A stretch of DNA of 64,000 nucleotides, from IMG/VR virus record IMGVR_UViG_3300021389_000018, positions 1,030 to 65,029 of that record. One strand, written 5' to 3'. A model generated the notes under the pieces. The model saw nothing but the letters and a program-made list of their open reading frames with translations. It was not told the DNA's origin and made no database searches. A program made the position numbers and the translations under genes. Positions within the stretch are counted from its first letter, which is position 1, and each line of letters opens with the position of its first letter. Source of the stretch: a virus (lineage: Duplodnaviria > Caudoviricetes). Of this stretch, positions 5,003-54,270 are shown one piece after another.

Positions 5003-8000
5003 CTATTTATATGTTTTAAGTTGTGCCATAAATCTACTTGAAGGCTTGAATCCAAGTGTCTTCTCCATATATTTTAATTGTTCTATAGTAGGTCTAAGTG
5101 TTTCTTTAGACGTAAAGTCAGGCTCGCCAAAGTAGTGTACAAAGATCTTAGCCTGTGCCTCTGGATCTCTGGCGTACATCACATCTAAGATGTAAGAAGC
5201 TTTCTTCACTTGACTTAGGTCGGTTGTCGATATCTTCATATATCTATCGATAGCATACTTAACATCAGCAGGGTTATCTACAGTCTTTAAAAACTCTTTA
5301 AACTCTTCTTTATCTTTCTCTTTAGCAAATTGATCAGTAATCTTTTTGATGCGGTATCTTACACTACCCTCAGTCATCTCAATATCAGCGGCTTTATCCA
5401 TAGAGGTATCCTTCCAATTAGGTCGTACACTTCTAATAACTCTTCGTTGAGCAGATTCTTTTATACCTGTAAGCGCTTCCATAACGCTACCATTATACAT
5501 AGATTCCTGCTTGTCACTAGGCTTGTATAACATATTAGCAACAAAATCACCAATACTGTATCCTACAGCTACCAACCCATTGGTAGAGGGTGAAGTTACA
5601 ATTGTTTCAGTAGCTGCTTTTAATCTTCTAGGAGAAGCCCCCGTGACCTGTCCGATAGCCTTAAAGAAATAAGGTATAGACTTGTCATACAATCCTTCGT
5701 CTTTAGGTAAAATCTTTTCAAACTCAGTGTCTGGTGAAATTACTGATCTTCTGTAGGAATCGTAGTTTGTTATATACTTGTTAGCTCCGGAAATACTAGG
5801 AGGCATTCTATTTAGTATATCTCTAATGCTTAATCCAACAGGAAGCGCATCTTTCATTGATTCGTAAACTCTAGATATCTTCTCTTCAGTAAGCATCGGG
5901 TCTTTTTTACCCATTGCATTGTAGTAAACAGATCTTGCTACCATCTCAGCTGCATTAATAAATGGAGCAAGCTGAGGGGACTTTCTAAGTCTAAAGTATC
6001 TTCTGTTACCTTCTTCATCCTTAAAAGGTAGTAAGAAAATAAAGTAAGCATCTTTCTCATAGTCTGGAATCTGATCGTACTCTTCCTCATCATCCCCAGC
6101 AGTAAGGTTGTACATCATTAAACCACCTACAAATACTGATACTTGAGCAAGCTTAGTCCCGAACTTAGCAGCGCCTCCCTTACTCATTAAGTACTCTCTA
6201 GATATTCTAAAACCTTGAACACCTGCATTGAGGTAGGGAATCCATCTATCTAACTTCTTAGCCGTTACACCACCTTGGTTAAAGTCCATTGTCTTTCTAG
6301 CCTTAGATACTGCTATAGCTGCAATTTCAGCATCGGTAAATGAATTCTTACCAGCAGCACGTTCTTTGGTTAGCTTAGTCTTAACCTGACTATAAGATGA
6401 TAGACGCATTGCTAATTCAGTTTTCTCTCCCGTGTAGGCTATCTTCTGACCAGCTGCCCTTAGTATTTTCTTTGTTTTGCTATTGATTTTTGATTCTATA
6501 CCGGATCTTTCAGCAAGACCCTTGATACCTTCCTGTCCGTAAGTAGTAAAGAATTCCATCATACCACCGTTTTCTATGTACTCATCTAATAACTTAGATG
6601 CCTCTTCCGCCCTAGATGTTTTTAATCCAGCATCTGCTTCAACCAATCCTGCTGTGTACTTAGATATATTTCTAGTGACTTTGTAGAAACTTACAGGTAA
6701 CAGTAGATTGTCATCGTATATATCTGTAAAGAACAATACGTGTGCGACATCCATAGGGACGTTAGACAGGAAGAACATAGGGTTGTAACCTGTTGCGGCA
6801 GCCTTTAGTACAGTAGCTCCAGAAGCTAAGTTAATAGCATCTTCTAGTTGACTGTGCTGATTTATAGAACGTAAAGAATCAGTCCACTCGGAATGAAGCT
6901 CTTTGTTTAACTGGAACGCTCTTTTCTTACCGCCTTCTCTGTAGAATACATTTTCAAACCCACCGCTTGCGGGTTTAATTAAATAGTCTCCAAACTGATT
7001 TGTCTTAATATTACCTTCTTTGTCTGTATCGTAGTTTCCCTCACGATACCAAGGGATGGCATCCTTACCCTTGAGTTCGTTAGCCAAAGCATTGTTCATC
7101 TCGTTGGTTGCGGCTCTGTTACTTAAGGAAACGGTCATTTTTTCTAGTAAAAATCTAGAGTCCATAATTAATGCTCCCTCTGAACCACTACGCAATTGCT
7201 TTATCTGATCTGTACTTAGACCAGACTCTTTGTACATATCCCCAGCTTTGTAGTTTACTGCTACTATCTCACCGTTAGCGTCTGTTTCAATCTCAAATAT
7301 CTTATCTATAAAAGAACGGGTGATGTATTTGTCTTCAACAAATCTATTGTAAGTCTGCTCATCAATAAGCTCCTTATCATAAGCATACTTGAGCAAGTCA
7401 TTCGTAGCACTAAAGTATTTATCCGCAGCTTCCTTTGATGTAGAGTAGTAAGAGTACCTTGGTGCTTTATTTTCTAGCCACCATTTAGCGTAATCCTCTG
7501 TAACACCTTGGGGGTGTTTCATTACTCCATTATCTTCAATTCTTTTTTTGAGCTGAGAAATTTTATCGTCTATTTTCTTTAATACACTCTTAATCTCTTT
7601 AGTCTCATTAGATTTTAAACTGAGATTCAATCCTTCCTTAACAGCTTTTCTTTTTTCTTTAATACTTTCTAAAGAAGATTGAGCAGCGTTTCTTCTAGCT
7701 CTCCTGTTCTGCTCTATTTGAACTATACGTTCAAACTGTAATATCTTGTTAGTTAGCTTCTCCTGCTCACGAGTAAGACCATCATATATTTCATTCTCGT
7801 ACTTGTGGAAACGGTTTACACCTCTAGCCTTAGATCCTGCTTTGTTCGTCATCAAAGATTCCGATATCTCAAATCCAGAGTCGATTAACTTTTTTCTAAT
7901 ATTCCCTTGTCTGTCAGACCATTGATTTTTAAACCTTTCACCGAACTTACCCTTACGGTCTTTCTCAGCCTGGGCTAGTTCTTTTTCTGACTCATTGTAC

Positions 8001-11000
8001 ATCTCATCTGCTAGATCTGGCATAGACTCAAAGTCCATATCACTCTGAAAAAGAGGACCGCTATCTCCAATTTCTACAAACGCTCTTGCAGACTCCTCAT
8101 TTACAACAGTAGAAGCCTCCATCATCTCATCGTAGTACTTGTACTTATGTTCCCCTGCCTCTAATCCTTTATACTCAATGTATGACTCACCACCCAAACT
8201 TAGTCTTCCATTAGGTAGTTTTAGTGGATCGCCTGTTTCTTTTTTAGGTGCAGCTTTCTTCTTAGGAGCCGTTTTTGTTTTTGTGGGTGCTTTGGTTTTC
8301 TTAGCCATCTCTGCGGCTTCCTCAGCTTGTACAGCTTCTAATCTCTGTTTTATGCTTTCGTTTTCAGCAATCTGAGCCTTCTCAGCCTCAGTCATAAGCA
8401 TATTATCAAAGATGTTTCTAACTTCTGGAGTCAATTCTCTTTCAATAGATTTAAATCTTATAGCTGAATAGATTTGCTTCAACCACTTTCTTAGGTTGTC
8501 AAATATCTTTTGTAGTGCAGGAACTGGCGCTTTACCATCGTGCAAGTATCTTTCAAATCCTCTGGCAAAAGCCTCCGACATATCAACAGTACCGTTTTTA
8601 TATCCAGACCATTTTTCTACAACTTTGATTTCATCGTCAGTCAAGTATCTTTCGTATACGTGAGCAAACTCGTGAAGCGGTGTTGTTACATCTGGGTTGG
8701 TTAACGCATAAATCATAAACGCACCATCCTCGATAGCCATAGCGCCTTTTATATTGTACTTCTGATTCTTATCACGTATTGCCTTGATCTTGTACTCACC
8801 CTTGTACTTATAAACTTTTAAATTCATAAGCTTGTAGCGATCACGAAGCTCTTTAGCTTTCTTATCAGCGGCAGATTTATCTTTTGACTTAAAGCTCTTT
8901 ATCTCTTTAGAAAGTTCTGATACTTGAAATAGTACATCTATTTCGTTACCGGAAATCCAGTAGTCTTCAAATTTAATTTTTGATCCAGGACCCAAATCTG
9001 TATGTGAGATTTGTTTTGGTTTAAAGAATCCTAGCGATAGTCCGGTGTCTGTTTTTTCTGTTTCAAAAATATCTCCATACATAGCATAAAGAGAAGCTGG
9101 TGTTTCAACACCGTATGATTGTGTAGTACCGGTTCTGTTTATATAACCTCCATCTAAAACCTCTACATTCCATATACCATTCTTTGTTTTTACGTGAAGA
9201 GTGCTATCTATCTTACCACTAACTTTAATGTTTGTAGTAGATATGAGGTTGTCCCAATCACTTTGCGTGCCATTTGGAAAAATAGATATTACAGAAGTGC
9301 CAGATAAATCTGAGTCTTCATCTATGTATTCTTTATTAAAAACCTCAGATACATCTCCTATATTGACATCGTATACCTCTGTATTTGGAAGTTCTATGTT
9401 AATACGTTCTCTTTCCCTTAAATATACTTTTTCAATATTTACATCACTATCTCTGTATACTATATAAGGCTCTGGACCATCTGTATCTAAATTGAGTATT
9501 ACTTTTATGTCGCTCTCTGGATAATAGTAAGTAGTGTCAGCTTCCAGATCAAATTTTATATTTAAATTACCGATCTCCTGCAGATAATTATTATGCTCAT
9601 AAGTATCTTCAAATGGACTGATCAACATAACTTGCTCAGGAGTAACGCCTAGCATTTCCCATCCGCCTTTCTCGTTAAATTCTCTGATGAAATCATCACC
9701 ATTAATTGGATTTCCACCTTGAAGGAATGATTTTATAGTTTGATCAGCTTTATCCTTGCTGTTAATTTCAGCAGGCATAGAGAATTCAGACTCAGCTAAT
9801 AAAAGCTCTCTCTGAACAAATTTTGCTCCGTTATTTATTTCCCCAGAATTCTGTATAAAATCGTGTTCAACATCTTTATATTTTGCTATTCTGCTTTGAG
9901 TAGGTGTTTCTCCCTTTATTTGATTAATAGCTCTGGTTTCATTGTCAATATTGATAGCAGTTACAACCTTACCGTCTTTTGTTAATAAATAGAAATCACC
10001 TCTATTTAGATGCTGTTTAGCATTGTATTTAGTACAAAAAATTGTGTCTTGAGTCATAATAACAAGATCATCAATCTCTTGTGCTGCTGCTACTCCAAAA
10101 GTGTCTTCACTAATACCACTGAACTTGTACACTTTAAACCCGTCTTTATTGTATACAACCCTTTCGCTTTGATTTAAAACCTCCTGCTTGGATTCACCAA
10201 GCATCTTGATATATGATTTTAGTGGATGCTCTTCTGATTTTTCAGAGATTACCCATTGCAAAGCAACTTTTTGTACCATAGGGGTGAAGTTTGCTGTACT
10301 TTTCTTGTCTCTTTTGTAATCCTTATTTGTGTTTAGGTCGTATCTAAAAGAGATTAGTTTTTCAAACAAGGTTAAGGCTCTTAGCTTTTGTTTGGGATCT
10401 GATAGCTTTTTTATAAGATTTGACCAAGCGTAAATTGTTGTATCTTGATCTGATTTTATATGGTTAGCGACAGTTAACTTTGAGTTTTCAACAGAGTCTT
10501 GGTAATGTTCTTCAATCTGTAAGTCAGAAACCTGCTCAGACAAAGGCTTACCTTTTTCTAGATTTATACCAAGTCCACTAGCAGCTTCCAGCCTTACTAA
10601 AGAGTCTAAACTTTTGTTTTTTAATAAATCATCAAAATCGGTAGATATTGTTTTGTTTTGAGTTAACATTTCAAAAAATTCATTCTTTTCAAGAACTTCG
10701 TTTACAGCTTTTGAAAAGCTAATGCCCTCTTTTCTTCTAAGAATGTTTTTGCCAGTAACTCTATTTAAAATATTAATTCCTTCTACGACTATCGGGTCAT
10801 CAATACCTTCCTTGGTATGCTTTTCTACAATCTTATGTTCGATAGGATTAAGCTGTGCAAGGGTCATAGATTCATCGTGAATATCATTACTGTCCATAGC
10901 GCTATGCTTAGACTGCTTCAATAATCTTTCAGCATCACTCTGTGTGCCTTTCACGTACTTTATACCTTTGGCTACATCAGCCATAGGTATGCCTTTACGT

Positions 11001-22452: not shown

Positions 22453-22495
22453 CAAAGATACAAAAAAGAAGGGGCTGCATTTCTGCAACCCCCTC
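22453..22495 (-). promoter_or_regulatory. intrinsic terminator (GAAA loop) immediately followed by -7 box TATCTTTG
   Basis: Minus strand reads GGGGTTGCA-GAAA-TGCAGCCCC-TTCTTTTTTG-TATCTTTG. Confidence 0.7.
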
Positions 22496-22519
22496 TTACA
22501 TAGTAACTTATAAGTTACT

Positions 22520-25920: not shown

Positions 25921-25962
25921 CAAAATTAAATAAAAAAGGGATACAGTTTCCCGTACCCCTTT
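25921..25962 (-). promoter_or_regulatory. terminator hairpin followed by -7 box TAATTTTG upstream of scaffold/capsid genes
   Basis: Imperfect hairpin plus T-tract at 25932-25962; plus strand CAAAATTA at 25921-25928. Confidence 0.6.
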
Positions 25963-25980: not shown

Positions 25981-26370
25981 CTACTTTCTGTAACGACTTA
26001 CTTTTTTAGCGATACTTTTAGGTTGTCTAACAAACTGTTTTCCTTTTTTGTTACCCGCTGCTTTAGCTCTATTAGTAGCTCTTTTCTCTGCCGGACTTAA
26101 CGCTTTCCAAGCTGCATCTGGTAAGTAACGCTTTTTGCCCTCTGACTTGCTTCCGTCTGAGGTTCTCCACTTTTGCTTACTCCATTTGCTTAGGCTGTTA
26201 GACGATTTCTTTGCCCCACTATAACCGCCTCCTGATTTTTTATAACGCTTAGTAGCAAGCTGTGCTTTACGAGCTGACCATTGCCCAGGTCTTCCTCCTT
26301 TTGACCCAGCCTTGACCGCTGCTACAATACGTTTCCACTTACCAGGATTTGATTTTTTTGCGCTACTCAT
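25981..26370 (-). CDS. highly basic protein (DUF5872-like), possible DNA-condensing/core protein
   Basis: GGRPGQWSARKAQL...KWSKQKWRT...RYLPDAAW; very K/R-rich. Confidence 0.7.
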   Translation of the reverse strand: MSSAKKSNPGKWKRIVAAVKAGSKGGRPGQWSARKAQLATKRYKKSGGGYSGAKKSSNSLSKWSKQKWRTSDGSKSEGKKRYLPDAAWKALSPAEKRATNRAKAAGNKKGKQFVRQPKSIAKKVSRYRK

Positions 26371-26532: not shown

Positions 26533-27075
26533 TTATCTATGCTGATTAAAGTATCCTATGATCTCACTCTCCAATTTTGAGTCCATTAAATAATTACCAT
26601 CGTACTCTACACTAGTGAATGTATCCTCATCATCTTCTGTTATTTCAATCTTGTATTCTACATCATTGTAAACAACTTTAAAATACTCACTACGCTTTAT
26701 CATCTTGATATCTTCATTAGAATGAAAGACAGCCTCAACGTCTTTGTGGTCAAGCCCCGGTAAGTTTTTTAATCTACATACATAACGAGCGTAGTTATTG
26801 CCTTGAGTGTCCACTATGAAGTTTTCTTTTAACGTGGTCATTATGTAAAATTGCTGTTTCTTATCTAACCCCCCGTAATCAAATCTACCTGTAAATTTAA
26901 CTAGTGGGAAATCCATAATTACAGTTTTGACATCTTCGGATAACTCACCAAAGTCAACTTCTGATTTTACAGCTGAAGGCTTTGTGGGTTCTGAGTCGTA
27001 TGGCAACAACATAATGTCGTAATACAACTTTAGACCTATTTTGTCTTTTATATTTTTAGTCTTTGTCCGTTGCAT
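26533..27075 (-). CDS. hypothetical protein, last gene of the two-component operon
   Basis: 180-aa ORF overlapping the upstream gene; FIVDTQGNNYARY motif; start uncertain. Confidence 0.6.
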   Translation of the reverse strand: MQRTKTKNIKDKIGLKLYYDIMLLPYDSEPTKPSAVKSEVDFGELSEDVKTVIMDFPLVKFTGRFDYGGLDKKQQFYIMTTLKENFIVDTQGNNYARYVCRLKNLPGLDHKDVEAVFHSNEDIKMIKRSEYFKVVYNDVEYKIEITEDDEDTFTSVEYDGNYLMDSKLESEIIGYFNQHR

Positions 27076-27601
27076 ACTTTACACCCATAATTGTACCGAC
27101 TATACTAAAGGCATTAGTAAGCAGTATACCGAACATATTAGACCAAGTACTTCCTATGATTTGCGTATCTGTACCAGAGCCTATTGCCCAAGCGTACATA
27201 ACTGTAGTTAACACACCTACACCTACAATAACATATAAAGCAACCTTAACTATAGTGCTTATAAGCTCAAACTGTGTGCGCTTCTGCATTACCTCTAAAT
27301 CCTCTAATGCTTCGTCACGCAGCATCTTACTTTCTTCTAGTGAATTCTGAAGCTCTATAACTAAAGCTTCCTTAATTACAGCTGCCTCTTCAAGCTCTTT
27401 GTTTTGCTTCTGTACTTGCTTTGTTATCTGTAGTCTTTTCTTTCTAGAGGATATATCTTTACGCTTACACTCTTCAATGTATTCTTTAACAACAGGATCA
27501 GAGGTGTCTGAAAAAAGCTTAACGAAGTTTCCTTCTATATAAACCTTCTTAGCCTTAGCTTTTAGTATAGCCTCTTTTACTGTGTCCTTAGAACTTATCA
27601 T
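27056..27601 (-). CDS. coiled-coil protein with two C-terminal transmembrane helices
   Basis: Heptad-rich middle region; hydrophobic segments IVKVALYVIVGVGVLTTVMYAWAI and MFGILLTNAFSIVGTIMGV. Confidence 0.75.
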   Translation of the reverse strand: MISSKDTVKEAILKAKAKKVYIEGNFVKLFSDTSDPVVKEYIEECKRKDISSRKKRLQITKQVQKQNKELEEAAVIKEALVIELQNSLEESKMLRDEALEDLEVMQKRTQFELISTIVKVALYVIVGVGVLTTVMYAWAIGSGTDTQIIGSTWSNMFGILLTNAFSIVGTIMGVKYATDKD

Positions 27602-28038
27602 CTATATATTTTAAAGGAATTTGTTTTGTCTTTGTACCCCTTATAGTCTTCTTTAAATTCTTCTAAGCGTGGCTCAATGTCATCAGACTTAATAATCCAA
27701 AACTGTGCGCCTGCTTTCTTAGCTTTTTCTATTTCTTGTTTGTCATCAGAAGATGAGATAATACCAATGACACAGCCATTACCGTATTCAAAATTAATCT
27801 TGCGAATCATCTCAATACCATCAAAACTGCTGCCTATAATGTTGAGGTCTACGAATACACATTCGGGTTTCTCATCGTTAGGGTCATCGGGAAACCACTC
27901 TTTAAATTTTTTATCTGCTTCATCAGAAGAGTCTAGAGCCTCTAATGAAAGCGTTATATCAAGGATGCTACACGCATCTTCAAATACCAAGTGGAATAGG
28001 TCTTCATCGTCTATAAGTAGTATAGAGTTTATCATCAT
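27598..28038 (-). CDS. single-domain response regulator (CheY-like receiver)
   Basis: ILLIDDE acidic pocket, CVFVDLN phosphoacceptor Asp, FDGIEM, IISSS, GAQFWIIKS (conserved Lys); no output domain. Confidence 0.92.
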   Translation of the reverse strand: MMINSILLIDDEDLFHLVFEDACSILDITLSLEALDSSDEADKKFKEWFPDDPNDEKPECVFVDLNIIGSSFDGIEMIRKINFEYGNGCVIGIISSSDDKQEIEKAKKAGAQFWIIKSDDIEPRLEEFKEDYKGYKDKTNSFKIYR

Positions 28039-29261
28039 TTTATTTTTATAAGTAGTTTAGTTCCTTGTTGTTGTTTTTCAGCTCTAATTGTAAATCCGTG
28101 TTCTTTCAATATGGCAAGACAGATATTTAACCCAAGTCCAGTACCGCCTTCATCTTGATTTTGTTTTCTAGTGTAAGGCTTTGACAATTCTACAAACTCT
28201 TCTTGAGTAATTCCCCTCCCGTTATCTTCAACGCATAGGGTGTAATCATTCTGCATATATATAGATACAAATTTAGTGGAGCTATCGTTGTACTTTAAGC
28301 CATTGCGTATTAGGTTATCAATAGCTGTACAGAACAAGGGTTCATTAACTAATAATGATGGAAGCAGTCCTATTTGAACTTGTTTTATATATGATGTGCT
28401 TTTTAAATAATCGTTTAGTATTTCTGTGATGTTGCACTTTTCTTTGTCTAGCTGTGCATCTTCTTTTACAAGGTTAGTAAACTCTTTAACGCCAGCATAA
28501 ACTTTCTGTGTATGGCGCAGCCCCTCTTCAAGCATTCTTAATGGGGCTTGTATTTTTAGTTTTTTAATATCTTCTTCTGTAATCCTGCGTTTTAAGGAGC
28601 TTAAACCTCTAGGCATATATGTGTTGATGCCGCTATGCATATCGTGTCTTAGGATCTTTGCAGCGTGTTCTAGGTAAGAGTTTTTTTGATTTACTAGAGC
28701 TTCAGTCTCGTGTTGTAGCGTTACATCTGTTGCAATTTTTAGCACCCTAGTGTATTCTCCTTTTCTATTCTTTACTGGAGTGTAATGACCGAACAACCAA
28801 ATCTCACTACCGCTTTTTGACACACGCTCAAACTCACCACTTAACGTTTTACCGCTTTTAAGCTTTTGCCAAAAGTTATGATATTCTAAGCTTTCGCTAT
28901 AATCGGTAGGGACTAGCTTGCTGTGGTGTATACCTTTAGGGTTGTGGTAACCCATAAGATTACAAAACTTTTTATTCGCTGACTTGATAATACCATCCAT
29001 ATCCATAGTAACCACTATGTTAGAGCTGTCAATAGCTTTCATCTGCGTATTGATATTATCTTCTTTTATTTTTGCGGAGCTTATATAGCTGTAGACTACG
29101 TATCCAAATGGTGGCATAAACGCTATTACACAAGCGTACCCGAATTCAGCTAGTAAGTAAGAGGGTTCACAGAATCTAAATACAATACACGTTTGCACCG
29201 CAAAGAATGCAAACATTATTACAGCAGATACAGCTAGACATATTTTTGATATGCGATTCAT
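28035..29261 (-). CDS. membrane PAS-domain sensor histidine kinase
   Basis: Two N-terminal TM helices; PAS/PAC (ANKKFCNLMGY...FWQKLKSG...GEFERVSKSGSEIW); H-box LRHDMHS; N-box NLIRNGLKYN; G1 VEDNGRGI; G2 GGTGLGLNIC. Confidence 0.93.
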   Translation of the reverse strand: MNRISKICLAVSAVIMFAFFAVQTCIVFRFCEPSYLLAEFGYACVIAFMPPFGYVVYSYISSAKIKEDNINTQMKAIDSSNIVVTMDMDGIIKSANKKFCNLMGYHNPKGIHHSKLVPTDYSESLEYHNFWQKLKSGKTLSGEFERVSKSGSEIWLFGHYTPVKNRKGEYTRVLKIATDVTLQHETEALVNQKNSYLEHAAKILRHDMHSGINTYMPRGLSSLKRRITEEDIKKLKIQAPLRMLEEGLRHTQKVYAGVKEFTNLVKEDAQLDKEKCNITEILNDYLKSTSYIKQVQIGLLPSLLVNEPLFCTAIDNLIRNGLKYNDSSTKFVSIYMQNDYTLCVEDNGRGITQEEFVELSKPYTRKQNQDEGGTGLGLNICLAILKEHGFTIRAEKQQQGTKLLIKIK

Positions 29262-29413
29262 TCATTTTTCTTGCGAAGAAAATACCAGCGTTGTGCTGTA
29301 TATCCAATAGATATTATAATTAATAACAGCTTTAGAGCCGTTTCAACTTGAGACATAGAAATGCTAAGAGTTGTAGCGTTTAATAGTAGTACTTTGATAT
29401 CAGTTTCGTTCAT
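29258..29413 (-). CDS. unannotated 51-aa membrane protein, holin-like
   Basis: Translates to MNETDIKVLLLNATTLSISMSQVETALKLLLIIISIGYTAQRWYFLRKKNE; TAATG overlap upstream and ATGA overlap with the kinase start. Confidence 0.75.
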   Translation of the reverse strand: MNETDIKVLLLNATTLSISMSQVETALKLLLIIISIGYTAQRWYFLRKKNE

Positions 29414-29703
29414 TACCACTTAGCTTTATTTGCCCAATAAGCAGCAGACATTTTGCCTTTGGCGATATTCTTACGATGACGTGCTTTGAATGATGCACGT
29501 TTCTTCTTCATACGATCAGACTCACCTGCCTTTGGTTTACCAGCTGTGCTTGCACCTTGCTCTCCAAAGCGTATAGTCTTAATCTTGTCACCTACCTTAG
29601 CCACTACAATGTGTGACTTCTTAGGGTGATTGGGAGTACGCTTAGGTTTATTGAACCCGCTTACTCCTGCTCTTGCTAAACGTGAATCTTTCTTCGCTTT
29701 CAT
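29413..29703 (-). CDS. highly basic small protein (core/DNA-binding candidate)
   Basis: GFNKPKRTPNHPKKSH...RFGEQGA...SFKARH...SAAYWANKAKW; start moved to ATG 29703 because the -7 box occupies 29709-29716. Confidence 0.75.
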   Translation of the reverse strand: MKAKKDSRLARAGVSGFNKPKRTPNHPKKSHIVVAKVGDKIKTIRFGEQGASTAGKPKAGESDRMKKKRASFKARHRKNIAKGKMSAAYWANKAKW

Positions 29704-29708
29704 AGACA

Positions 29709-29749
29709 CAAAGATAAATAAAAAAGGGGCTACATTTCTGTAACCCCTT
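29709..29749 (-). promoter_or_regulatory. intrinsic terminator (GAAA loop) plus -7 box TATCTTTG driving the basic-protein/holin/kinase operon
   Basis: Minus strand reads GGGGTTACA-GAAA-TGTAGCCCC-TTTTTT-ATT-TATCTTTG. Confidence 0.7.
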
Positions 29750-52110: not shown

Positions 52111-52331
52111 TTTTTAGCTCTGTTTCGTTTTGCGCTTATAAATCTTTTCTCTCCGTGGTCATAGTCCATACCGTCTCCATTACCGTACTTCCCTGCCTTA
52201 CGTCTCATCTTATTTAAAAAGGCACGGTACTTCTTACGCTCCTCCGTAGAGTGGTACTTCGTATCGTACTTCTTTTTCTTCGCCTTCGCCTCTGGGTTGC
52301 TGGCGTAAAACTTTGCCGTCTTACCCTTCAT
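52107..52331 (-). CDS. small basic protein with a minimal HNH-like remnant
   Basis: GDGMDYDH...SAKRNR; K/R-rich. Confidence 0.6.
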   Translation of the reverse strand: MKGKTAKFYASNPEAKAKKKKYDTKYHSTEERKKYRAFLNKMRRKAGKYGNGDGMDYDHGEKRFISAKRNRAKK

Positions 52332-52788
52332 ACGGTAGGTATCTTGTTTTTCCGTTTACACGTACCGCTTTCAATACTTGATGACGGTTTCTACTGTCTT
52401 TCTTATGAGATATATGCACCCAGTCTGGATTCTCATCCGTACCAAACTCCCAAATCAATTGATCAAAGTCTAGTCTATCTAAAGCATAGTGGAATATATC
52501 TGCATTGGTAATCACACCGTATACATCTGCATCTAGGTCCAGCGCTTCACCCTTACTATGCTGAGAAGTTTTACTTCCACCAATCGCCTCGTTAAGCGCT
52601 TCGCTTCTGTAGCCTGAGCTGACAAAGATCGGACACATAAACTCCTCACGAATGGGCTGGAATATATTCTCAGCTACCGCTTTTAGATTCTCCAAATGAT
52701 CCACTGTCGGCTCGTTGGCAATCCCTCGCCTCTTCGCAGTAGCAGACTTCGTCACTTCCGCAAGCGAAAGGTTCTTGGATAGATTCAT
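52321..52788 (-). CDS. endolysin, peptidase M15 family
   Basis: NLSLAEVTKSATA, VSSGYRS, SQHSKGEALDL, FDQLIWEF, WVHIS; TACCTTTG box at 52825-52832. Confidence 0.9.
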   Translation of the reverse strand: MNLSKNLSLAEVTKSATAKRRGIANEPTVDHLENLKAVAENIFQPIREEFMCPIFVSSGYRSEALNEAIGGSKTSQHSKGEALDLDADVYGVITNADIFHYALDRLDFDQLIWEFGTDENPDWVHISHKKDSRNRHQVLKAVRVNGKTRYLPYEG

Positions 52789-52848
52789 AGTTGTAATCGC
52801 TTAAGTAGTAATGTGTTACAAAAGCAAAGGTAATGAATAAAACTAGAA

Positions 52849-53265
52849 TTATGAGCGCCACCATCTCCCTACAATCAATATACACCCGAACAAAACACCG
52901 GCTGCTAGTATCAGATCCTTGAACTTATCCCAGAACGTTTTCTTCTCTACGTATACAATCTTATCGTAAGGAACCTCTACAATACTAATAATCGTATCCG
53001 AGTCGCAAATGGCGTCTATAGTAATCGTGTCGTTCACCTTTACTATCTTCACTCTCAGCCTGTCTTTCACTAGAGTAATAGTATCGTGTTGCTTCAAAGT
53101 CACAGTATCCGTGATAGCCACAGGTGGGCTGACAACCGTGTTCGTCACAACCAGCGTGTCTTTTACCAGAATCATAGGGTCTTTCTGCACCGCTTTCTTT
53201 AAGTGCCATTGAGCGCTGCAACTCGTTAATAACAGCACTAGAGTTAACTTTACCAGCCATTTCAT
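52849..53265 (-). CDS. lipoprotein with C-terminal TM helix, spanin candidate
   Basis: Lipobox LLTS-C; D-T-I/V beta-rich middle; C-terminal hydrophobic helix followed by RWWRS; lies between holin-like gene and endolysin. Confidence 0.6.
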   Translation of the reverse strand: MKWLVKLTLVLLLTSCSAQWHLKKAVQKDPMILVKDTLVVTNTVVSPPVAITDTVTLKQHDTITLVKDRLRVKIVKVNDTITIDAICDSDTIISIVEVPYDKIVYVEKKTFWDKFKDLILAAGVLFGCILIVGRWWRS

Positions 53266-53483
53266 TTCTTAGCAAACTTCTCCAACCCTGCAATACCAAA
53301 ACTCCCAAGAGTTACTATAACAAAGCTGTTATATGTAAACTCATTGATCGGTAAATCTTTACCCCAAAATCCACTCATCACATCTGCAATCATTACAATC
53401 ACCATAACAGCAAAAGAAAGAAAACCTATTACCGTCTTCTCATTGTAGCTATTGTCGTTTTTAAAAATCTCTAAGAAACTCAT
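53262..53483 (-). CDS. holin-like 2-TM protein
   Basis: NEKTVIGFLSFAVMVIVMIAD...FVIVTLGSFGIAGLEKF; start ATG 53483 lies downstream of TATCTTTG at 53503-53510. Confidence 0.6.
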   Translation of the reverse strand: MSFLEIFKNDNSYNEKTVIGFLSFAVMVIVMIADVMSGFWGKDLPINEFTYNSFVIVTLGSFGIAGLEKFAKK

Positions 53484-54270
53484 AATCTGTTGTTTAGTTA
53501 TACAAAGATACCTATTTCTCATATACCGATTCCCACTTAAAGTGATACTTTAAGGTTGACAATGTCAAAAAAAAGTTGTAACTTCGCTTTGTTCTAATAC
53601 CACCGGTAATCATCTCGATTAGCGCTTGTAAAACAAACAATCTTAACACTTGCGGTGGGCAGACAGCCCCATCCGCTCACTTCCAATCTTATCAGATTAA
53701 CAATATAGGCGCACTATACCCTATTCCGCTAGAAGCGGTCTTTTTTCTATCCGACTCCCTACAAAACACCGATTTGTCACAATAATTCGTATATTTTGTG
53801 ACATTAGATTAACTTAAAGCTTTACTTTAAGTATGAAACAATATGTTCCACGGTTAAAGTGATACTTTAAGCGAATGAATTCAATTGTCAGAATAGATGA
53901 GTAATACAGGAGTGGGGGATTATATACTATTACAGACGCATCAGTTCTCTAACCCAAATGGATTATCTAACCCTACCCCCTCTCTAGCTTAACGAAATTT
54001 GGTATACTTTTGGGATATTCTGTTGCTAGTTTATAGTGGTTAGTGAGTAGAGTAGTTTAGTAACCTCTATCAATCACTTCCCTGTAAAACCCTAAAAGCC
54101 CTTTCTACCCCTTTGGGGTAGGCAGTTTCCCCTCAAACCCGGCAAACACTTTCAGATATCTTTTTCCCCTAAAGGGAAAAAATATCTTCCTTCGACATTT
54201 GGATTTCAACTTTCTTTTTCCGTTGTTAGTTGCCGTTCGACACCGAAGTCGGACAGAAAATATATGTGTT
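53484..54270. other. divergent non-coding control region between late (-) and early (+) blocks; candidate genome terminus or origin
   Basis: About 790 bp with no credible ORF, multiple palindromes and hairpins, strand switch of coding. Confidence 0.6.
53537..53870. repeat. three copies of the palindrome TTAAAGY-N3-ACTTTAA (53537, 53814, 53854)
   Basis: Seen directly; fourth copy at 60823-60839. Confidence 0.85.

Follow-up and report, generated by a model that had tools for sequence, protein, structure and literature searches.

The window analysed here is a stretch of 64,000 nucleotides (nt) from the viral record IMGVR_UViG_3300021389_000018, of which it covers 64,000 of the 65,029 bases, the record being rated complete by CheckV. 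On its minus strand it carries genes for a sensor histidine kinase, a stand-alone receiver and a coiled-coil protein that ends in a hairpin of two transmembrane (TM) segments. A first-pass annotation, made from the sequence alone, had described at this place six genes with overlapping ends, and the six minus-strand open reading frames (ORFs) were all confirmed between positions 26533 and 29709. The kinase (408 amino acids, aa; 28035-29261), the receiver (146 aa; 27598-28038) and the 181-aa coiled-coil/2-TM protein, our candidate effector (27056-27601), are each joined to the preceding gene by a 4-nt overlap. They are preceded by the genes for a basic protein and for a 51-aa protein, and followed, with a 20-nt overlap, by the gene for a 180-aa soluble protein, an accessory member of the module (26533-27075).

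The kinase has the architecture that had been proposed for it, with TM segments, a PAS domain and intact H, N, G1 and G2 boxes. Hydropathy indicated a pair of hydrophobic segments at the N-terminus, separated by a short loop, and Pfam placed a PAS_9 domain over residues 82-181 (39.8 bits against a cut-off of 27) and a HATPase_c domain over residues 310-407 (60.9 bits against a cut-off of 26.4). The H-box R205-H206-D207, the N box N316..N320, the G1 box D346-x-G348-x-G350 and the G2 box G373-x-G375-L-G377 were invariant in an alignment of 27 kinases, from which four of 30 non-redundant sequences (L024, L031, L041 and L061) had been excluded for their N-terminally short ORF calls. Kinases in the PDB aligned over the dimerization and histidine phosphotransfer (DHp) and catalytic region (e.g. 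8f71, residues 192-394). By sequence, the PAS part was nearest among solved structures to a 'Sensor protein' (3ewk, E 3e-7) and the aerotaxis receptor (8dik, E 3.4e-5), the PAS domains of which presumably bind FAD.

The receiver matched Response_reg over residues 6-118 of 146 (32.3 bits, cut-off 30.2), and no further Pfam domain, hence no output domain, was found in it. Among solved chains that bear the name of a regulator, 3ilh was nearest (E 9.5e-5). Thirty-six of 80 receiver sequences, chosen at less than 97% mutual identity, entered an alignment of 37 in which D9/D10, D63, S94-96 and K116 were invariant, so that the reported integrity of the DD, D, S and K positions was borne out; D63 is, by its conserved position, the predicted phospho-acceptor. 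For a receiver of this kind the annotation had supposed an action by protein contact on a membrane event, which was judged probable.

The partner for such a contact would be the 181-aa protein. Its structure model (predicted local distance difference test score, pLDDT, 77.8) consists of two short N-terminal helices, a long helix (residues 35-141) running into the first TM segment (TM1) and a last helix (residues 146-176) that forms the second (TM2); hydropathy likewise gave two hydrophobic segments at the C-terminus. In an alignment of 34 sequences, which included 33 of 72 homologues, two parts were almost invariant: TM2, which contains small and polar residues, and the basic stretch K-R-L-x-x-T-K-Q-V-Q-x-Q-N that opens the coiled coil.

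Relatives of the kinase are encoded by at least 597 viral contigs, and the best 80 of these were compared as loci with our own ORF calls and BLASTP clusters. The kinase (57-90% identity) and the receiver (79-98% identity, more conserved than the kinase) were found in 80/80 loci and the 181-aa gene in 77/80, the three absences being contig ends; these three genes make up the conserved core. The 180-aa gene was present in 39/80 loci, the 51-aa ORF in 11/80 and the basic gene in 10/80. Ratios of non-synonymous to synonymous substitution rates (dN/dS; Nei-Gojobori, window against 11 of the 80 loci picked by hand) were 0.08-0.11 for the kinase, 0.015-0.043 for the receiver, 0.04-0.27 for the 181-aa gene and 0.08-0.25 for the 180-aa gene, values that agree with a complete kinase/receiver pair owned by the phage and held under purifying selection. 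The 120 best of 5,322 kinase database matches were all 400-411 aa long and 69-91% identical.

Two trivial origins of the locus were ruled out. Recent capture of a passenger is refuted by the dN/dS values (0.015-0.27) together with the spread over at least 597 viral contigs, and an assembly chimera by the same gene order in about 10 independent viral contigs. A near-identical bacterial operon had been named as a possible source, and the nearest cellular receiver proved to be only 66-68% identical.

Relatives of the 181-aa protein were sought with a profile in 1.84 billion representatives, which returned 242 at E <= 0.001. Among them the hairpin was found fused to GAF (P0150), to two PAS domains (2xPAS; P0166) or to one PAS domain (P0157 and P0172), and the N-terminal domain of the 181-aa protein (N-domain) was found fused to HisKA and HATPase_c (P0243, P0260 and P0261), although P0243 had no relative in the viral contigs searched; a metagenome scan with alignment A9 returned hairpin-type genes only. 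The 2xPAS-hairpin gene was located in 80 viral loci, in 0/80 of which the receiver was present, and no receiver was found at the loci of three full-length GAF-hairpin matches (L176-L178). In 76/80 further metagenome loci the receiver lay directly upstream of a 181-aa homologue (65 of the 67 with upstream room). Because the fused variants occur without the receiver, because the N-domain sits on a kinase in the cellular locus L086 described below, and because of these 76 metagenome loci, the N-domain and this type of receiver are seen to travel together, with the hairpin as an exchangeable output driven by sensor domains. The 181-aa hairpin protein is a better effector candidate than the 51-aa ORF, to which the annotation had coupled the relay.

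The position of the module among its relatives points to lysis. An endolysin or holin-family gene lay within three genes of the module in 50/80 loci (endolysin 41, holin-family 47). The endolysins were of the PG_binding_1 plus Amidase_2 type, of the M15 type or matched phrog_33083, and the holin-family genes belonged to the tm82 family, which flanks endolysins in other phages, or to hol140 (Phage_holin_4_1 at 20.5 bits, just below the cut-off; phrog_199). All 50 cases fell among the 56 loci that have neither the window's virion genes nor baseplate-wedge genes. The one-component relatives were similarly placed, with the 2xPAS-hairpin gene within two genes of an endolysin in 53/80 loci, and of an endolysin or a small-TM/holin-family gene in 69/80, the typical order being tm82, hairpin, endolysin and hol140. 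In L005 and L011 the 51-aa ORF and the kinase come immediately after tm82, and in L011 TATCTTTG stands 19 nt before tm82; this order is a halfway form between the lysis-linked arrangement and that of the window.

In the window itself, a complete cassette of holin-like protein, putative u-spanin and endolysin was found at 52321-53483 (minus strand), 23 kb from the module. It begins with a small tm82-type membrane protein of 73 aa (53265-53483; 53-81% identity to tm82 members), holin-like by position and with no PHROG or Pfam name. The next gene (52849-53265) encodes a 138-aa protein that had no family match and that, from its lipoprotein-type signal (Cys in an LTSC motif) and C-terminal hydrophobic segment, has the architecture expected of a unimolecular spanin. 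The third (52321-52788) encodes a peptidase M15-like endolysin (phrog_894, E 1e-36; 62-64% identity to the M15 cluster). Twenty nt before the cassette lies a copy of the TATCTTTG box (53503-53510, minus strand).

Another copy of TATCTTTG, a candidate Bacteroidota-type -7 promoter element (29709-29716, minus strand), heads the signalling unit, directly behind a terminator-like hairpin that closes the upstream gene (29724-29749; 11 pairs, 5 G-C, then a T-run). The first gene of the unit encodes a basic 96-aa protein (29413-29703; phrog_7595, E 2e-42) within an ORF of 98 aa (29413-29709), its true start being likely the ATG at 29703, in agreement with the relatives. In 7/7 window-like relatives with this gene upstream (L002, L003, L004, L006, L007, L008 and L051), the box was kept 5 nt before the ATG. 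The number of boxes was uninformative: TAnnTTTG, which we take to be the Bacteroidota -7 promoter consensus, occurred 60 times in the window against 68 expected, not above chance, and TATCTTTG occurred 7 times against 4.2 expected, a count reached by 12/100 shuffles and not significant. It is their positions that are informative, since 5/6 minus-strand copies of TATCTTTG were intergenic and 5-34 nt before minus-strand gene starts (22453, 29709, 30067, 30477 and 53503).

Two near-identical cassettes of terminator plus TATCTTTG were observed on the minus strand, one at about 22453-22500, before the gene for a 246-aa virion protein, and the other at 29709-29749, before the signalling unit. They share the sequence GGGG-T-T-R-C-A-G-A-A-A-T-G-Y-A-G-C-C-C-C, followed by a T-run and then the box, and the cassette appears to be a reused punctuation element.

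The box proposed as promoter was found in place; the extent of the unit probably has to be revised from six genes to seven. After the 180-aa gene, no TAnnTTTG box was found within 26533-26370, and no minus-strand terminator before a terminator-like hairpin at 25935-25962 (12 pairs, 5 G-C, then a T-run). Because this is the next terminator on that strand, the transcription unit would end there and would include the gene for a 129-aa basic protein (25981-26370; phrog_14910 and phrog_17747), which is probably transcribed along with the others. Parts of the unit were covered by contigs of four RNA-labelled runs (8-26 of 30 bins, 90-99% identity), a coverage that is not a demonstration of transcription and yields no start sites.

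The block does lie between tail-fibre and capsid genes, as had been noted, with tail-fibre proteins (phrog_9942 and phrog_18345) on one side and a capsid-type virion protein (phrog_13704) on the other. Portal, large terminase and virion proteins are also among the flanking genes, in keeping with a late-type gene block. The capsid-type protein was 33.5% identical to counterparts in Flavobacterium and Cellulophaga phages, and this identity, taken with the kind of promoter, points to a flavobacterial host; the record probably represents an uncultured phage of marine flavobacteria. The genome backbones around the module differed among the loci compared: about 10 shared the window's virion genes, about 14 had baseplate-wedge genes downstream, and in other loci the module followed ribonucleotide reductase, a DnaB-like helicase and an exonuclease.

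Outside the core, the gene content was variable. The basic gene follows the module in L031, L068 and L080; it is a lineage-specific neighbour that shares the promoter and stands outside the conserved module. The 180-aa protein, aligned from 16 of 39 sequences, has no hydrophobic segment and gave a model with pLDDT 84.2, for which Foldseek returned nothing in the PDB at E <= 0.001, the wide VIA-align search a best Z of 5.2, within the noise band, and the Atlas no usable match. Two further proteins were observed in relatives: m165 (L033:8870-9367), of about 165 aa, with several TM segments and a C-terminal coiled coil, encoded between the receiver and hairpin genes in 23/80 loci, and m370 (L037:8259-9371), of about 370 aa, with a TM/coiled-coil/TM layout, encoded after the hairpin or holin gene in 27/80 loci. 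Neither had a family match or a homologue in the window.

In 4/80 loci a gene for a microbial rhodopsin of 192-193 aa was inserted between the receiver/m165 genes and the hairpin gene (L039:10165-10746, L058:10170-10751, L065:7547-8125 and L067:6529-7107), so that a phage rhodopsin is wired into a two-component and lysis context. The protein matched PF01036 (Bac_rhodopsin; 53.2 bits, cut-off 24.6) and kept the invariant retinal-binding Lys of the last helix, in D-x-x-A-K-L-G, and the helix-3 motif R-Y-x-D-W. At the position aligned with the proton donor of proteorhodopsin it has Gln, which we take to be a trait of sensory, not pumping, rhodopsins. Its closest solved relatives were proteorhodopsins (E 5.6e-13) and the viral rhodopsin OLPVRII (E 3.2e-9), and scans for it returned only the four known contigs and one distant giant-virus match.

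Among cultured phages the module was not encountered. In 50,697 GenBank phage records, a DNA search with the unit gave no match, tblastn with the receiver and with the 181-aa protein gave none either, and tblastn with the kinase gave weak partial matches only, 0/11 records covering 80% of the query. The view that kinase/receiver pairs are rare in phages is therefore correct for the cultured ones in GenBank, but does not extend to environmental phages, with at least 597 contigs encoding the kinase. A literature search of titles and abstract openings found no phage kinase/receiver/hairpin module.

Cellular genomes were scanned with the receiver alignment, one genome for each of 185,579 species, and the receiver type was found at 7 loci, six of them with homologues of the kinase, the receiver and the 181-aa protein. 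These six contigs of metagenome-assembled genomes (MAGs; L082-L087) are labelled as five phyla and have only the three module genes in common with the viral loci. The neighbours of the module in L082 were PHROG-type families, and the MAG labels of L082-L085 and L087 were Bdellovibrionota, Verrucomicrobia, Alphaproteobacteria and Gemmatimonadota; at least some of these five probably come from phages or prophages that were put into bacterial bins. Of the relatives inspected, L086 alone was clearly cellular (5709-9090; Bacteroidetes MAG, G001); there the neighbours included Por_Secre_tail proteins (sorted by the type IX secretion system), CreD, HD and HAD. Its gene order was a soluble kinase with three PAS domains, a receiver 66-68% identical to that of the window, and a 349-aa protein, the first ~130 residues of which aligned with the N-domain and coiled-coil part of the 181-aa protein (32% identity, E 7e-15) and were followed by HisKA and HATPase_c. 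The module may have arisen from this locus, or the locus may have been acquired from a phage. Its receiver type was found in 1/301 genomes of its order and in 1/401 of its phylum, each time in the same bacterium.

Taken together, these data are compatible, at about even odds in our judgement, with a phosphorylation-gated membrane effector that tunes lysis, by which the phage would time the lysis of its host according to a sensed signal. In such a pathway the input would be the kinase, anchored in the membrane with nearly no periplasmic loop and with one cytoplasmic PAS domain, which would read a cytoplasmic or membrane-state signal, presumably redox, energy or membrane state and possibly, in a few relatives, light. 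The kinase would autophosphorylate on H206 and pass the phosphate to D63 of the receiver, the parts needed for this chemistry being intact and conserved. The phosphorylated receiver would bind the small N-terminal domain of the 181-aa protein, and the signal would travel through the coiled coil into the 2-TM hairpin. In the inner membrane the hairpin could act as a regulated holin, as an antiholin or as a depolarising partner of the tm82-type holin, and lysis would be advanced or delayed. The unit would be transcribed with the virion genes from TATCTTTG, and because the same box heads the lysis cassette, both would be switched on together late. The 51-aa and 180-aa proteins would be accessory, and the former may modulate the kinase in the membrane.

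Several observations weigh against this interpretation. The kinase had no Pfam HisKA-type match at E <= 0.1. The 181-aa protein belongs to no Pfam or PHROG family, and hhalign comparison of its family with the tm82 and hol140 holin-type families gave probabilities of 1.3% and 0.5%. Endolysin and holin-family genes were next to the module in 0/10 window-like and 0/14 baseplate-type loci, so that the link to lysis is drawn from the relatives and not from the gene order of this window, and late timing is read from gene position and the shared box. Many of the 80 loci are near-duplicates, and the locus counts are consequently not counts of independent events. On the other side, prediction of a complex between the receiver and residues 1-112 of the 181-aa protein lent the interpretation weak support, a small addition to the genomic argument, with a score of 0.37 (best of three controls, 0.00) that lies in a band where passes are mostly wrong unless the guess was likely beforehand. 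The mark for this score was reached by 58/80 solved complexes and 2/110 mismatched pairs, rough counts since our own alignments were used, and the passes at or below 0.60 comprised only 7/80 solved complexes and both of the passing mismatches. The runs agreed in at least 97% of contacts, with a partner pLDDT of at least 74, and one of the three scored 0.02.

The proposed pathway can be compared with several known systems. CheY acting on FliM, and DivK with DivL and PleC, are single-domain receivers that act by protein contact. The present module is like them in combining a kinase core of the class I type, with H, N, G1 and G2 boxes, and a receiver without output domain; in L086, moreover, a second kinase with the same N-domain comes after the receiver, an arrangement resembling that of receiver-controlled kinases. 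It differs from them in being phage-encoded and virtually absent from the searched cellular genomes, in having as presumed target a coiled-coil/2-TM hairpin protein of no known family, and in a DHp region that falls short of Pfam HisKA. LytSR of Staphylococcus, which presumably responds to membrane state, controls the holin/antiholin-like Cid and Lrg proteins. There, too, two-component signalling is connected with small membrane proteins that resemble holins and antiholins, but LytR is a transcriptional regulator with a LytTR-type DNA-binding domain, whereas the receiver described here is viral and has no DNA-binding domain.

On the side of lysis, the T4 holin T is regulated in lysis inhibition by the antiholins RI and RIII. 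There, too, a sensed signal sets the time of lysis via proteins acting on a membrane holin; the T4 proteins, in contrast, bind directly without phosphorylation, and the parts considered here have no PHROG or Pfam name. Holins with two TM segments form class II, the pinholin type. The C-terminus of the 181-aa protein shares with them a 2-TM hairpin, with an invariant TM2, and has relatives beside endolysins; unlike them, it carries a cytoplasmic N-domain of ~110 residues and a coiled coil, and its profile does not resemble those of the holin-type families in these phages. Phage-encoded sensing of host or population signals (PMC7790227), as by arbitrium or VqmA-type receptors, resembles the module in that a sensor owned by the virus informs a life-cycle decision. 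Those systems are one-component transcription regulators or peptide systems for the lysis-lysogeny choice, whereas here a phosphorelay with membrane output would operate in an apparently lytic genome.

Alternatively, the module could sense host state or light in the service of takeover, the hairpin altering membrane physiology (ion leak, respiration, transport or motility machinery) in favour of replication, and the lysis genes would then be mere neighbours, brought near by the clustering of membrane-protein genes. We regard this as unlikely, although it has evidence in its favour: the PAS domain is nearest to 3ewk and to the aerotaxis receptor 8dik, a rhodopsin was inserted in 4/80 loci, and in two lineages, including that of the window, the module stands apart from lysis genes. 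Loose clustering is, however, a poor explanation for the variant with PAS domains fused to the hairpin, which lies between a small membrane protein and an endolysin in most loci, and no metabolic or transport gene was consistently linked in the 80 loci.

A membrane sensor might also serve superinfection sensing or exclusion, in which the kinase would detect the disturbance of the envelope by a second phage, and the hairpin would block DNA entry or delay lysis, with a logic like that of T4 lysis inhibition. The anchoring of the sensor by two TM helices, the apparent late-type expression, the linkage of the module to lysis cassettes in relatives and the variable small membrane proteins encoded before the kinase (tm51 in 11, tm66 in 33 and tm77 in 9 of the 80 loci) would all suit such a role. 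Nevertheless, the kinase has almost no periplasmic loop, so no outside-facing sensor is evident, and its PAS domain is cytoplasmic. We consider superinfection sensing rather improbable as an account of the module; it is in any case a special case of the lysis-timing interpretation, and no result separates the two.

The wiring originally proposed, in which the relay would gate the 51-aa protein as a holin, receives little credence from the comparison. The 51-aa ORF (tm51; 29258-29413, from its ATG) overlaps the stop of the basic gene by 1 nt and the kinase gene by 4 nt, which implies translational coupling to the kinase; it is under purifying selection (dN/dS 0.02-0.15), its product has a hydrophobic segment and a basic C-tail, and it directly follows the tm82 lysis gene in L005 and L011. 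These features would fit a holin. On the other hand, the protein has a single hydrophobic segment and not several, matched nothing in Pfam or PHROG, and did not resemble the tm82 family by profile (hhalign probability 0.1%, holin families being many and diverse). Nor are homologues of the module always linked to it, because tm51 was confined to 11/80 loci and was replaced elsewhere by unrelated small membrane proteins (tm66 in 33/80 and tm77 in 9/80). The ORF lies 23 kb from the endolysin cassette and not within it, and since that complete cassette exists elsewhere in the genome, the 51-aa protein is not needed as a holin; it is a lineage-specific gene and probably not the holin of this phage.

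Cross-talk by mimicry, with the phage receiver or kinase plugging into a homologous two-component system of the host, is most improbable, because the receiver type was not found in 300 genomes of the order and 400 of the phylum besides that of L086 (7 loci in 185,579 species) and likely hosts were mostly without a look-alike partner among the genomes searched, even though that cellular Bacteroidetes contig holds a related kinase, receiver and second kinase, and the receiver is more conserved than the kinase, as if several partners held it.

For a lytic phage, the moment of lysis is the main life-history trait, and its known determinants are holin clocks and, for T4, superinfection. If the lysis-timing interpretation is extended to the whole family, a step we take only tentatively, many uncultured aquatic phages would own a pathway that sets lysis, and regulated holins or antiholins would gain a new class in the hairpin, with a swappable input (receiver-binding N-domain, PAS or GAF). 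In a small sub-lineage the pathway would be coupled to a phage-encoded rhodopsin of the sensory type, and lysis would be timed by host energy, redox state or light. The family provides compact modular parts (sensor domain, coiled coil and membrane hairpin) for study and engineering, and it defines a putative receiver-binding N-domain that also occurs on cellular kinases; the lack of the module in the cultured phages of GenBank points to targets for isolation. If true, environmental phages would compute the moment of lysis from a sensed signal through a widespread, virus-restricted phosphorelay and a membrane effector, and the modelling of burst timing, of diel viral lysis and of carbon release in aquatic systems would be affected.

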